The notes under the pieces: generated by a model
Database searches by the model: none
The model's input: the letters and a program-made list of their open reading frames with translations, nothing else
What the model was told of the DNA's origin: nothing
In this document: one piece after another, positions 52,532-54,638 of the stretch
Layout of the letters: each line of letters begins with the position of its first letter
Numbering within the stretch: position 1 is the stretch's first letter
Position numbers and translations under genes: made by a program
Assembly (NCBI RefSeq): GCF_003334785.1
Contig: NZ_QOWV01000013.1
From: Escherichia coli
Lineage (GTDB): Bacteria > Pseudomonadota > Gammaproteobacteria > Enterobacterales > Enterobacteriaceae
Length of the DNA: 64,000 nucleotides
Reading direction: 5' to 3' (one strand)

Positions 52532-52960
52532 TTACTTATCGATAAACGGCACGATGAGCAAATCCGCACTCATCTTATTGATCATCCCGCGATATGCCGG
52601 CATCAAACGGTTGATAAATGAGTGATGATGACCACAGACAAGGAGGTCGCACTGCTCTTTTTGCATAATTTCCAGCAGTGTTTCCGGCATTTCTCCGCGT
52701 TCAATACGCAGTTTTGTCTTCGGCCATTGAATATTTTTCGTCAGTTTATACAGCTTGTTATCCGACTTATTCTTCAACAATTGAAGAATATCTTCTGTTG
52801 CAGGGAAGTAGATACCCGGATACAACTCGCTTAAGCCATCATCAATATGAATTAACGTCAGGTGAGCGTCATTATGTCTGGCGAGCTCCAGGGCTTTATT
52901 CACCAGTAAGGCATCTTCTTCATTCCCGGAAATTGCCACGCCAATGTGTTTATAAGCCAT
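52532..52960 (-). CDS. uspD: Universal stress protein D (142 aa)
   Basis: [52 protein letters not shown].. Confidence 0.92.
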
Positions 52961-52986
52961 GTTTAACTCCTTCTAAAGCAACTCCA

Positions 52987-53286
52987 TCAAGCTAACGAAC
53001 GCAGTGATAACTCAAAAATAATCATCTCGGCCTGGCATGAGAAAGTGAAGGCCGCATCAAGCTCAACTTGCCCCTCCAGATCCTTAATCTTATAGGCCAC
53101 GCTGGCCCCTTCATCTGCAGAGGATGTAGCGGCGGCAAGCTCTTTCAGTTTGGTCATAAAAGACTCTGCTTCTTCGCGGGTGGCAAAAAAGCGCGAAAAC
53201 TTACTGGTACAGTTGTCGTTATCAATCACCGTACCGATATCAATCGCACATCCTTTAGTACTGCATTTATCTACGACATCTTTCAT
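52987..53286 (-). CDS. yiiS: Uncharacterized protein YiiS (99 aa, DUF406 family)
   Basis: 99-aa [56 protein letters not shown].. at the K-12 yiiS position. Confidence 0.8.
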
Positions 53287-53497
53287 AGGGCACCTCTGTA
53301 TATTCGCCTCTCTGTCGATTACGACTTAAGAATAATGCGCCGTTAAGGGAAGAACAAACAAGTAATGATCTTATGGATTACCATTTTTTTTGATATTGCT
53401 TAAGGTGAAGAGTTCAGAAGGATTTTCCGGGTATTGTCATTTGCATCGTGGAAATAACAATCCCGGAAAAAAATAGCAGTAAGAGATATATTAAAGG

Positions 53498-53938
53498 TTA
53501 ATTACTTGATTTATTGTCGGCTTTATACTTCACATCCTGAGTATCTTTACCATATTTATTTTCGCCTTGTGTGCCAACAAACGCACCAAGATCGATAAGC
53601 ATCATCACCAGAATCAACGTCGGGACAAAACGCCCCACCGCCCATTGCCAGACACCCGGTAAAATCGCCCAGTTACCCGCCAGCAGCATCCACGCCACAA
53701 TCATCAGAAATGCCCATGCGCCGGAACGCCCGCGATCATGCAAGCGCTTAACAGTTACTGCCGCTGTTGGCCAGAGCAAGCACACAAGGCAAAACGCCGC
53801 GGTCTGAATATCGAGTAGATTCTTACCCGCCAGTGAGAAAAGCACCAGCATGCCTGCGAACCACAGGCCTATCCAAATCCAGAAATCACGGCGTCCAATA
53901 CGCCCTTTAAATGAGAATAACCATTGCTGTATGGTCAT
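53498..53938 (-). CDS. yiiR: DUF805 inner membrane protein (146 aa)
   Basis: 146-aa ORF with transmembrane segments MTIQQWLFSFKGRIGRRDFWIWIGLWFAGMLVLFSL.. Confidence 0.8.
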   Translation of the reverse strand: MTIQQWLFSFKGRIGRRDFWIWIGLWFAGMLVLFSLAGKNLLDIQTAAFCLVCLLWPTAAVTVKRLHDRGRSGAWAFLMIVAWMLLAGNWAILPGVWQWAVGRFVPTLILVMMLIDLGAFVGTQGENKYGKDTQDVKYKADNKSSN

Positions 53939-54038
53939 GTAAGTTCCTTGATGGTTGTCTTTTCCAGGATTCTACCCTTTTGACAAGGGCGACAGATATC
54001 GTTTTAATCGGAGCCAGTCATAACAAAAGGTACTGTCA

Positions 54039-54638
54039 ATGAAGCCAGGGTGTACGCTGTTTTTTCTCTTATGTTCTGCATTAACCGTTACAACAGCGGC
54101 GCATGCACAAACACCAGATACGGCAACGACCGCGCCTTATCTGCTGGCTGGAGCCCCTACTTTCGATCTCTCCATCAGCCAGTTTCGAGAAGACTTTAAC
54201 AGCCAGAATCCCAGCCTGCCACTGAACGAATTTCGTGCCATCGACAGCAGTCCCGACAAAGCCAATCTCACTCGTGCTGCAAGTAAAATTAATGAGAACT
54301 TGTATGCTTCTACAGCGCTGGAGCGCGGTACCTTAAAAATCAAAAGCATTCAAATGACCTGGCTACCCATCCAGGGGCCAGAGCAAAAAGCCGCGAAAGC
54401 GAAAGCTCAGGAATACATGGCAGCGGTGATCCGCACACTCACCCCATTAATGACCAAAACACAAAGCCAGAAAAAACTGCAGTCGCTACTAACGGCGGGG
54501 AAAAACAAACGTTATTACACCGAGACAGAAGGTGCACTGCGTTATGTTGTCGCGGACAACGGCGAAAAGGGGCTGACCTTCGCTGTTGAACCGATTAAGC
54601 TGGCGCTATCTGAATCGCTTGAAGGTTTGAATAAATGA
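54039..54638 (+). CDS. yiiQ: Uncharacterized periplasmic protein YiiQ (199 aa, DUF1454)
   Basis: 199-aa ORF with signal peptide MKPGCTLFFLLCSALTVTTAAHAQ. Confidence 0.8.
   Translation: MKPGCTLFFLLCSALTVTTAAHAQTPDTATTAPYLLAGAPTFDLSISQFREDFNSQNPSLPLNEFRAIDSSPDKANLTRAASKINENLYASTALERGTLKIKSIQMTWLPIQGPEQKAAKAKAQEYMAAVIRTLTPLMTKTQSQKKLQSLLTAGKNKRYYTETEGALRYVVADNGEKGLTFAVEPIKLALSESLEGLNK

Follow-up and report, generated by a model that had tools for sequence, protein, structure and literature searches.

Probable layered assembly of the four small genes between fpr and tpiA in Escherichia coli, with a horizontally acquired yiiS-uspD stress module

Universal stress proteins (USPs) of class I, represented by E. 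coli UspA and UspC and by H. influenzae UspA (PDB 1JMV), share with E. coli UspD the same fold, induction by stress and the absence of the ATP-binding glycine motif. The published assignment of UspD to class I (PMC6560075) agrees with the missing motif. UspD differs from the other class I proteins in forming its own very small clade and in a reported effect on iron handling (streptonigrin sensitivity, PMC6560075); uspD mutants are sensitive to both oxidative stress and streptonigrin (Nachin et al. 2005, summarised in PMC6560075). Unlike uspA and uspC, uspD is the downstream member of a gene pair whose other member encodes a DUF406 protein.

That DUF406 protein, YiiS, belongs to the YfcZ/YiiS family (PF04175; structures 2K3I, 2KHD and 2JZ5). 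The NMR structure of YiiS (PDB 2K3I) has a ferredoxin-like beta-alpha-beta-beta-alpha fold; the sample contained 10 mM DTT, and residues 1-28 lie outside the ordered region (PMC2860719). The cysteine-rich N-terminus, where a cofactor would naturally be sought first, was cut from the Vibrio construct. The genomic settings of the family differ: yiiS is paired with a usp gene in Escherichia and on asr islands, whereas yfcZ stands alone between fadL and fadIJ. Two further families are found at the same locus. DUF805 proteins (PF05656), YiiR included, are small and polytopic, with an arginine-rich N-terminal motif and a KRLHD loop motif; no member has a known function, so a mechanism cannot be transferred to YiiR. 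The nearest relatives of YiiQ are the DUF1454 proteins (PF07305) and, by fold only, DUF2066 proteins.

The regulation of yiiS and uspD is comparatively well described. The two genes form an operon, with yiiS first and uspD second, and its direct control by YdeO has been established by ChIP-chip, EMSA, RT-qPCR and lacZ fusions (PMC4222967). YdeO binds the yiiS upstream region (ChIP-chip and EMSA), and when it is over-expressed, yiiS and uspD rise more than 3-fold while yiiR does not respond (PMC4222967). Direct control has also been reported for GadX/GadE (PMC4918353), AppY (bioRxiv 10.1101/2022.02.28.482378) and sigma-E (PMC2731931). An acid shift induces the operon (PMC2270276), and the yiiS knockout has been implicated in general acid resistance (PMC4918353). 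The pair is now under the AraC-type acid-stress regulators YdeO, GadX and AppY, plus sigma-E.

The window analysed here is a stretch of 64,000 nucleotides of E. coli DNA, in which a first-pass annotation had described a compact cluster of four small genes between fpr and tpiA. The comparisons presented below indicate that the four genes are probably a by-product of repeated insertion between fpr and tpiA rather than a functional cluster, and that yiiS-uspD is a horizontally acquired stress module within them. The genes and their annotation were already catalogued, and nothing is overturned; the new part is modest comparative detail. The features of the locus, with the basis of each in brackets, are as follows.

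51781-52527, plus strand: fpr (ferredoxin-NADP+ reductase), the left anchor (ORF list, RefSeq, synteny)
52528-53497, strand not applicable: Escherichia-specific 970-bp segment comprising uspD, yiiS and the yiiS upstream region (gap sizes, junction sequences, GC)
52532-52960, minus strand: uspD (yiiT, b3923), class I universal stress protein, 142 aa (ORF list, NCBIfam)
52987-53286, minus strand: yiiS (b3922), DUF406 / YfcZ-YiiS family, 99 aa (ORF list, family models, PDB match)
53287-53497, minus strand: yiiS upstream region, 211 bp, 37% GC (sequence, published YdeO binding)
53423-53470, minus strand: stable stem-loop, 28 nt past the yiiR stop codon (folding)
53498-53938, minus strand: yiiR (b3921), DUF805 inner-membrane protein, 146 aa (ORF list, Pfam, hydropathy)
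53939-54038, strand not applicable: divergent yiiR/yiiQ spacer, 100 bp (sequence)
53980-54008, plus strand: candidate yiiQ promoter, TTGACA-N17-TTTAAT (read by eye)
54039-54638, plus strand: yiiQ (b3920), DUF1454 protein, 199 aa (ORF list, Pfam)
54690-54707, plus strand: putative yiiQ terminator, a GC-rich hairpin with a T-rich stretch in the yiiQ-tpiA spacer (folding)
54746-55513, plus strand: tpiA, the right anchor (ORF list, RefSeq, synteny)

The positions first given for the four genes match the ORF list exactly, and the RefSeq annotation on an identical stretch carries the same four names. The family labels UspD, DUF406, DUF805 and DUF1454 agree with the NCBIfam and Pfam matches. The arrangement also stands as first described: yiiS and uspD are co-oriented and tightly spaced on the minus strand, with 26 nt from the yiiS stop to the uspD start, and yiiQ is divergent from yiiR, on the opposite strand across the 100-nt spacer. 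The distance between yiiR and yiiS is 211 nt. A 4.2-kb stretch of the locus is present at 95% identity or more in all of the 5426 complete E. coli genomes (5426/5426). All four genes have dN/dS values of 0.05-0.06 against E. albertii, and yiiR and yiiQ have values of 0.05-0.10 against Salmonella and Klebsiella; ratios this low denote purifying selection, so the four are genes and not chance ORFs. A literature search found no paper giving a biochemical activity to any of them. To that extent the first-pass annotation was right to describe them as lacking an assigned function, but the YiiS structure, the regulators, and the yiiS and uspD mutant phenotypes had already been published.

UspD matches the UspD equivalog model NF007436 over residues 1-142 of 142 with 329.2 bits (cut-off 203) and is a member of that family. 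Its full-length Usp fold is evident from the match to PDB 1JMV (E=7e-22) and from the NCBIfam UspA (96 bits) and UspC (81 bits) models. A regular expression for the ATP-binding motif of the MJ0577 / UspFG type, G-x2-G-x9-G-[ST], has no match in UspD even when relaxed. The UspD clade is tiny, with 63 clusters at E<=1e-10 that are essentially Escherichia plus rare island copies.

YiiS is assigned to DUF406 by PRK09981 (197 bits, cut-off 130) and TIGR00743 (131 bits, cut-off 71); against the PDB it matches 2K3I at E=3e-59 (98/99 residues) and 2KHD and 2JZ5 at E of about 1e-5. The best-conserved part of the protein is residues 1-26, which are nearly invariant. Five positions, C8, C13, C26, C84 and E87, do not vary across 16 YiiS-type sequences. 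With YfcZ and Vibrio members included, C8, C13 and E87 are still invariant, and are thus shared by YiiS with both; C26 and C84 are not kept in Vibrio. What sets the YiiS subgroup apart from the rest of the family is its four invariant cysteines, together with an N-terminus of 26 residues that hardly varies.

The upstream region of yiiS holds the published YdeO binding, and the AppY and GadX binding and the sigma-E dependence are assumed to act within the same interval, 53287-53497. A search upstream of yiiS for the YdeO box (inverted ATTTCA, spacer 9-21) returned only half-sites with 1 mismatch and a 33-nt spacer, and the box is for this reason given no coordinates. IS1 is inserted in the yiiS upstream region in two E. 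coli genomes.

The closest counterpart of the yiiS-uspD pair lies on asrABC islands, where a usp gene 55-57% identical to UspD follows a DUF406 gene that ends 29 nt upstream and is 62-64% identical to YiiS. These islands resemble the window in having the same pair in the same order, at nearly the same spacing (29 vs 26 nt) and at 62% and 57% protein identity. They differ in that the pair lies behind anaerobic sulfite reductase genes, is flanked by insertion sequences or integrase genes, is rare, and often has a decayed DUF406 member; the window pair is chromosomal, is fixed and has its own regulated promoter region. The island copies are found downstream of asrABC on E. coli and Salmonella contigs, with IS66, IS1, integrase or Rep3 genes as neighbours, and the whole asrABC-DUF406-usp stretch is present in 3/5426 complete E. 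coli genomes. The link to asrABC could represent hitch-hiking on the island. Because the diverged pair (62%, 57%) is found on IS-flanked islands, it can be described as a portable two-gene module.

What the two proteins do together can be proposed only tentatively. YiiS and UspD would work jointly, limiting iron- and oxidant-dependent damage during acid, envelope and oxidative stress. In YiiS, the nearly invariant N-terminal cysteine segment with C84 and E87 would form a metal-binding or thiol-redox site, and UspD would be its non-ATP-binding class I USP partner. This joint mechanism is a possibility to which we give well under an even chance, and the metal or redox chemistry in it is conjectural. 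A more specific version is quite unlikely; it holds that YiiS and UspD may be an obligate mobile module in which Cys8/Cys13/Cys26/Cys84-Glu87 would bind iron, an Fe-S cluster or another metal, or would be a thiol switch, and would act with the non-ATP-binding UspD in protecting or maintaining Fe-S and siroheme redox enzymes.

Alternatively, YiiS and UspD may be functionally independent, with a co-transcription that merely reflects their joint arrival on one piece of DNA, a reading that is credible in outline yet doubtful. DUF406 genes frequently stand alone (Klebsiella, Kluyvera, Edwardsiella and Vibrio, and yfcZ in E. coli), one Salmonella Usp that is 65% identical to UspD lacks an upstream DUF406 gene, and in several island copies the DUF406 gene has decayed next to an intact usp gene. 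The published phenotypes also differ, with acid resistance for yiiS and oxidative stress and iron handling for uspD (PMC4918353, PMC6560075). An AlphaFold2 model of a YiiS-(GGGGS)6-UspD fusion reached a pTM of 0.50 without a confident interface, and the YiiS N-terminus is disordered in it (residues 1-24, pLDDT about 26), so a direct complex is unsupported; the alignment was shallow and PAE was absent, which makes the run a weak test. Independence is harder to reconcile with the conservation of order, orientation and 26-29 nt spacing across lineages at 57-62% identity and in different contexts, or with purifying selection that is equally strong on yiiS and uspD.

For YiiS itself, the depositors of the structure suggested enzymatic activity, by kinship with pterin-4a-carbinolamine dehydratase (PCD/DCoH) and with a ligand site in the region of Glu87 (PMC2860719), which is improbable. 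Glu87 is invariant in the family, YiiS superposes on DCoH at 2.8 A over 70 residues, and the conserved residues map to the pterin-site region (PMC2860719). However, the split beta-alpha-beta fold is very common, the structure-based identity is only 11-12%, and YiiS does not retain the PCD ligand-binding residues in the depositors' own comparison (PMC2860719); their proposal also left out the invariant N-terminal cysteines.

The history of the locus can be read from its neighbours. The fpr-tpiA loci were collected in a genome scan with a 9-sequence alignment. In all 81 Enterobacteriaceae loci (81/81), fpr is accompanied by yiiR on the minus strand and yiiQ on the plus strand, and tpiA is next wherever the locus extends far enough; the yiiR/yiiQ spacer is 101-134 bp in most. 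The uspD-yiiS pair interrupts the fpr-yiiR junction only in the Escherichia loci (L001, L003 and L004), where the gap is 960-977 bp; in 77 other Enterobacteriaceae species the gap ranges from -3 to 131 bp and is mostly 7 bp. In five more distant loci, where YiiQ is 34-55% identical, yiiQ comes immediately after fpr, and tpiA is next in the four that are long enough. The genes yiiR, yiiS and uspD are absent from all five of these loci, and the fpr-yiiQ gaps are 3, 3, 27, 107 and 224 nt (3-27 nt in 3/5). The yiiQ-tpiA adjacency, put forward earlier as a check, is kept in every informative locus, including those with orthologues only 34-38% identical, and tpiA is always downstream of yiiQ on the same strand. 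All four genes together are thus confined to Escherichia, yiiR and yiiQ only are found in 77 species, and yiiQ only in the five distant loci.

This distribution suggests three layers. The first is yiiQ, present across Enterobacterales, always between fpr and tpiA and on the same strand; from spacing alone, we infer that an fpr-yiiQ operon, with yiiQ second, was the original state. In the second, yiiR was probably inserted on the opposite strand in Enterobacteriaceae, splitting fpr from yiiQ. In the third, the 970-bp low-GC yiiS-uspD segment probably entered between fpr and yiiR in the ancestor of Escherichia; it is fixed in E. coli. The segment 52528-53497 has the marks of horizontal acquisition: it is patchy at a conserved junction, it has the same genes on mobile elements, and its GC content is atypical (uspD 43%, yiiS 46% and the yiiS upstream region 37%, against 53% for the whole window). 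Neither an integrase nor direct repeats flanking the segment turned up at this site, and a search for the donor of the segment returned nothing closer than about 65% identity. The direction of change, gain in Escherichia as opposed to loss elsewhere, is a parsimony reading over 77 species, with five loci outside Enterobacteriaceae.

The opposite direction, in which yiiS-uspD was ancestral at the site and deleted in other Enterobacteriaceae, is very improbable. The family has a long history in the group, since Klebsiella and Kluyvera carry YiiS-type DUF406 genes at other places in their genomes, and the Citrobacter and Salmonella fpr-yiiR gaps (40-131 bp) are slightly larger than those of other genera. 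Yet these gaps contain REP-like palindromes and no gene remnants, and deletion would have to have struck all 77 species, spread over more than 20 genera, and to have produced nearly the same 7-bp junction in most of them. The low GC of the segment and the demonstrable mobility of the same gene pair elsewhere also argue for insertion.

A single functional unit made up of all four genes, whether a common pathway or a stress island beside tpiA, is hardly credible and largely refuted: the genes are adjacent and all poorly characterised, and a loose oxidative-stress theme links fpr to the oxidative-stress-sensitive uspD mutants (PMC6560075), but they co-occur only in Escherichia (yiiQ is found without yiiR, and both without yiiS-uspD), are divided between the two strands into three or more transcription units, respond differently to YdeO (which induces yiiS-uspD and not yiiR; PMC4222967), and encode products for the cytoplasm, the inner membrane and the periplasm. 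Same-strand, tightly spaced organisation is a property of yiiS-uspD only, and the four genes show no conserved co-occurrence across genomes. The "compact cluster" of the first-pass annotation therefore survives as adjacency and as the yiiS-uspD pair, and not as one unit, given its three phylogenetic ages.

The two older genes can be taken one at a time. YiiR matches Pfam DUF805 (E=9.5e-19, residues 7-131), which places it in that family, and has four predicted hydrophobic segments (Kyte-Doolittle) at about 18-39, 43-64, 73-95 and 99-122. Two motifs do not vary among the Enterobacteriaceae orthologues: GRIGRRDFW at the N-terminus and KRLHDRG in the loop that joins segments 2 and 3. From these features we infer that YiiR is a 4-TM inner-membrane protein with its conserved motifs facing the cytoplasm. 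Among DUF805 proteins it stands out by its fixed position between fpr and yiiQ in Enterobacteriaceae; YhaH and YhaI are its E. coli paralogues.

YiiQ matches Pfam DUF1454 (PF07305) at E=5.5e-92 over model positions 2-189 of 189 and is a member of a family confined to Enterobacterales and counting 111 representatives in a set of 1.84 billion proteins. Residues 1-23 (54039-54107) are a predicted Sec signal peptide that ends in AHA|Q and lacks a lipobox, and each of 32/32 aligned homologues has a variable N-terminal stretch that is hydrophobic in most. The mature protein is basic (pI 9.2) and contains no cysteine. Structure prediction, suggested earlier as a check, gave a confident AlphaFold2 model for YiiQ (pLDDT 88, pTM 0.80; alpha+beta core pLDDT >90) and no characterised structural relative. 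YiiQ is accordingly predicted to be a soluble periplasmic protein. PDB sequence searches with YiiQ and YiiR returned nothing meaningful, no NCBIfam model matches either protein, and the literature on yiiQ, yiiR, DUF1454, DUF805 and yfcZ consists of screen listings and passing mentions. For both proteins, a non-enzymatic role in binding or in the envelope is our best guess. In Salmonella, a Tn-seq screen has picked out yiiQ in survival of desiccation (PMC5596212). The fpr gene belongs to the SoxRS regulon, and a periplasmic YiiQ may ancestrally have been co-expressed with fpr as part of the oxidative-stress response.

Elements outside the coding sequences are few. The stem-loop at 53423-53470 is stable (dG -22.8 kcal/mol, z -5.9) and shows compensatory changes in E. 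albertii; as a canonical yiiR terminator it was rejected, because there is no U-tract on either strand. The hairpin at 54690-54707 folds weakly better than shuffled sequence (z -2.0) and may be the yiiQ terminator. Promoter and terminator scans gave counts no higher than in shuffled sequence. In an Rfam scan of 51500-56000 at E<=1, the single match was a chance miRNA-model match inside tpiA, and a known RNA element is on this account absent from the interval. None of the four proteins matches a defence system in PADLOC, and against PHROGs the four gave a generic Usp match and two weak matches only.

The genes b3920-b3923 are among the y-genes still uncharacterised in the best-studied bacterium, which gives some value to any lead on their function; the practical gains are modest. 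Layered insertion turns their study into three separate problems and not a single cluster. For YiiQ, the fpr-yiiQ spacing outside Enterobacteriaceae is a testable regulatory lead. The literature found included no paper treating yiiS and uspD as a functional pair, and the two should be studied together. If the obligate-module proposal were true, it would fit the sites of the pair, behind asrABC on islands and beside fpr in Escherichia, would account for what uspD mutants show under oxidative stress and in iron handling, and would be the first biochemical role assigned to DUF406 and to a class I USP.

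The region is ordinary E. coli chromosome: 51500-55700 is matched at at least 95% identity in 5426/5426 complete E. coli genomes, and the RefSeq annotation of an identical stretch gives the gene order glpK, glpX, fpr, uspD, yiiS, yiiR, yiiQ, tpiA, cdh, sbp. The first-pass annotation presented the four small genes between fpr and tpiA as one compact uncharacterized cluster, with coordinates that agree exactly with a mechanical ORF list:

52532-52960, minus strand, uspD, 142 aa
52987-53286, minus strand, yiiS, 99 aa
53498-53938, minus strand, yiiR, 146 aa
54039-54638, plus strand, yiiQ, 199 aa

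These are real E. coli genes, already annotated as b3920-b3923. Their family labels are upheld for UspD (scoring 329 bits on its NCBIfam equivalog model, whose cut-off is 203), YiiS (DUF406; 197 bits on PRK09981, cut-off 130), YiiQ (DUF1454 over its full length, E 5.5e-92), and YiiR (DUF805, E 9.5e-19). All four are under strong purifying selection, with dN/dS values of 0.05-0.06 against E. albertii and, for yiiR and yiiQ, of 0.05-0.10 against Salmonella and Klebsiella. The genes do lack an assigned biochemical function; to call them open questions, however, overlooks a solved structure (YiiS), well-documented regulon membership, and mutant phenotypes.

The reading of the four genes as one cluster does not survive comparison across loci, where co-occurrence reveals an accretion of three unrelated units. 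In a species-level scan (one genome each), YiiQ relatives turned up at 80 loci, every one of them in Enterobacteriaceae, and the E. coli proteins were mapped onto these loci. Every locus has fpr(+), yiiR(-), and yiiQ(+), with tpiA(+) next wherever the locus reaches it; the yiiQ-tpiA adjacency, proposed earlier as a check, is kept throughout the loci examined. Only Escherichia loci carry uspD and yiiS between fpr and yiiR, in a gap of 960-977 bp, whereas the fpr-yiiR distance across the other 77 species ranges from -3 to 131 bp and is mostly 7 bp. The Escherichia-specific segment is as follows:

52528-53497, 970 bp, yiiS-uspD and the yiiS upstream region

The segment is compositionally distinct, with a GC content of 43% in uspD, 46% in yiiS, and 37% in the 211-bp upstream region, versus 53% in the window. 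At the same junction, Citrobacter and Salmonella (loci L005-L023) have 40-131 bp of REP-like palindromes and no gene remnants. Together, the Escherichia genes and these palindromes mark the junction as a recurrent site of small insertions. Other genera have just ~7 bp there. The convergent fpr and uspD genes end 4 nt apart (52528-52531), with no predicted terminator-like structure in the interval.

Five contigs encoding distant YiiQ orthologues (34-55% identity) lack yiiR, yiiS, and uspD. In these contigs yiiQ directly follows fpr at gaps of 3, 3, 27, 107, and 224 nt, and tpiA is next in the four that are long enough. In three loci outside Enterobacteriaceae (L106 3251-4612, L107 1533-2894, and L100 282-1658), yiiQ starts 3-27 nt past the fpr stop on the same strand. 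This spacing suggests an operon, and fpr-yiiQ is probably an ancestral one that was later split by the insertion of yiiR. The simplest reading of the locus is thus a three-layer history: an old fpr-yiiQ-tpiA arrangement, with fpr-yiiQ probably operonic, would have received yiiR on the opposite strand in Enterobacteriaceae, and yiiS-uspD would have been inserted in the ancestor of Escherichia.

The tight, co-oriented spacing noted for yiiS-uspD is borne out (26 nt on one strand, with a Shine-Dalgarno-like sequence before each gene), and published work handles the two genes as a single operon. YdeO occupies the region upstream of yiiS both in vivo and in vitro and increases transcript levels of the two genes, leaving yiiR unaffected (PMC4222967). 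The same region is bound by GadX and GadE, in a study that also implicated a yiiS knockout in general acid resistance (PMC4918353); a further regulator, AppY, likewise binds upstream of yiiS (bioRxiv 10.1101/2022.02.28.482378). The operon is among those listed for the sigma-E regulon (PMC2731931), and both genes are upregulated on a rapid acid shift (PMC2270276). According to the summary of Nachin et al. 2005 in PMC6560075, uspD mutants show sensitivity both to oxidative stress and to streptonigrin, the latter interpreted as a change in iron handling. The UspD sequence lacks the ATP-binding glycine motif, in agreement with its placement in class I. IS1 lies within the yiiS upstream region in two complete E. 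coli genomes (window equivalent 53287-53497; L105 1983-2680, E. coli HCP8S3_I1, is such a locus), and the insertion probably alters yiiS-uspD expression in those two strains.

With 63 clusters at E<=1e-10, the UspD clade is very small. Apart from the genes on the Escherichia chromosome, a few E. coli and Salmonella supply its only other members, copies with 55-65% identity to UspD. Nearly all of these have a DUF406 gene 29 nt upstream of usp, intact or decayed, whose product is 62-64% identical to YiiS; one Salmonella copy is without it. Where flanking sequence suffices, the pair usually follows the asrABC anaerobic sulfite reductase operon, among IS66, IS1, integrase, or Rep3 genes. The whole asrABC-DUF406-usp stretch occurs in only 3/5426 complete E. 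coli genomes. In the mobile islands at L087 3232-6423, L094 2665-6423, and L092 6365-10014, asrABC and then DUF406-usp are flanked by IS66, integrase, AlpA, or Hha-type genes, and the DUF406 gene is decayed in several island copies from rare E. coli and Salmonella. DUF406 genes are often solitary (Klebsiella, Kluyvera, Edwardsiella, Vibrio, and E. coli yfcZ). By this distribution, new in this analysis, the pair behaves as a portable module; order and spacing kept across 57-62% divergence argue, and do not prove, that YiiS and UspD work together. In Edwardsiella ictaluri (L086 4001-7608), a small AraC-type (HTH_18) gene lies 18 nt after the DUF406 gene, an echo of E. coli, where yiiS is controlled by the AraC-type regulators YdeO, GadX, and AppY. 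Nearby is slp, a YdeO target.

The NMR structure 2K3I matches YiiS at 98/99 residues. The fold is of a common beta-alpha-beta-beta-alpha type, which the depositors tentatively compared with pterin-4a-carbinolamine dehydratase, singling out one conserved glutamate (PMC2860719). In alignments, the best-conserved parts are the N-terminal 26 residues (with C8, C13, and C26) and FSCQAE (C84, E87); adding YfcZ and Vibrio members leaves C8, C13, and E87 invariant. The N-terminus was not counted as ordered in the NMR work (sample with 10 mM DTT) and was removed from the Vibrio construct. With C84/E87 it may form a putative metal-binding or thiol-redox site that orders only with a ligand or partner. 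In an AlphaFold2 model of YiiS joined to UspD through a linker, no interface was confident (pTM 0.50) and the YiiS N-terminus was disordered. The second E. coli DUF406 gene, yfcZ (L102 2510-2794, between fadL and fadIJ), is ~40% identical to YiiS and has a CCC run in place of the single cysteine C13.

YiiR has four membrane segments predicted from hydropathy and two invariant motifs, GRIGRRDFW at the N-terminus and KRLHDRG in the loop that joins segments 2 and 3, both of which should face the cytoplasm by the positive-inside rule. The yiiR literature holds nothing beyond screen listings, and to our knowledge no DUF805 member has been characterised. One stable structure lies downstream:

53423-53470, minus-strand RNA, hairpin 28 nt past the yiiR stop, dG -22.8 kcal/mol, z -5.9

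In E. albertii, compensatory substitutions preserve its stem. Neither strand has a U-tract, so the hairpin does not qualify as a canonical intrinsic terminator. Promoter and terminator motif counts in the region are at background level, no Rfam family matches it, and defence-system models gave no match to any of the four proteins.

The YiiQ N-terminus resembles a Sec signal peptide ending AHA|Q, without a lipobox, and the mature protein is basic and cysteine-free. Out of 1.84 billion proteins, this narrow family has 111 representatives, and it extends across Enterobacterales families. F42, Q105, R168, T180, A182, and E184 are invariant among 32 diverse aligned members, and the alignment yields a confident model (pLDDT 88, pTM 0.80). 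Screens list yiiQ for Salmonella desiccation survival (PMC5596212) and trimethoprim susceptibility (PMC3258297). A candidate sigma-70 promoter, TTGACA-N17-TTTAAT, at 53980-54008 (+), 31 nt before the yiiQ start codon, was missed by the consensus scan because position 2 of its -10 hexamer is T. The sole mechanistic lead for YiiQ is the tight fpr-yiiQ spacing outside Enterobacteriaceae.

The locus thus offers modest leads and no discovery: layered insertions, a mobile DUF406-Usp pair by asrABC, an invariant cysteine segment in YiiS, and a probable ancestral fpr-yiiQ operon.
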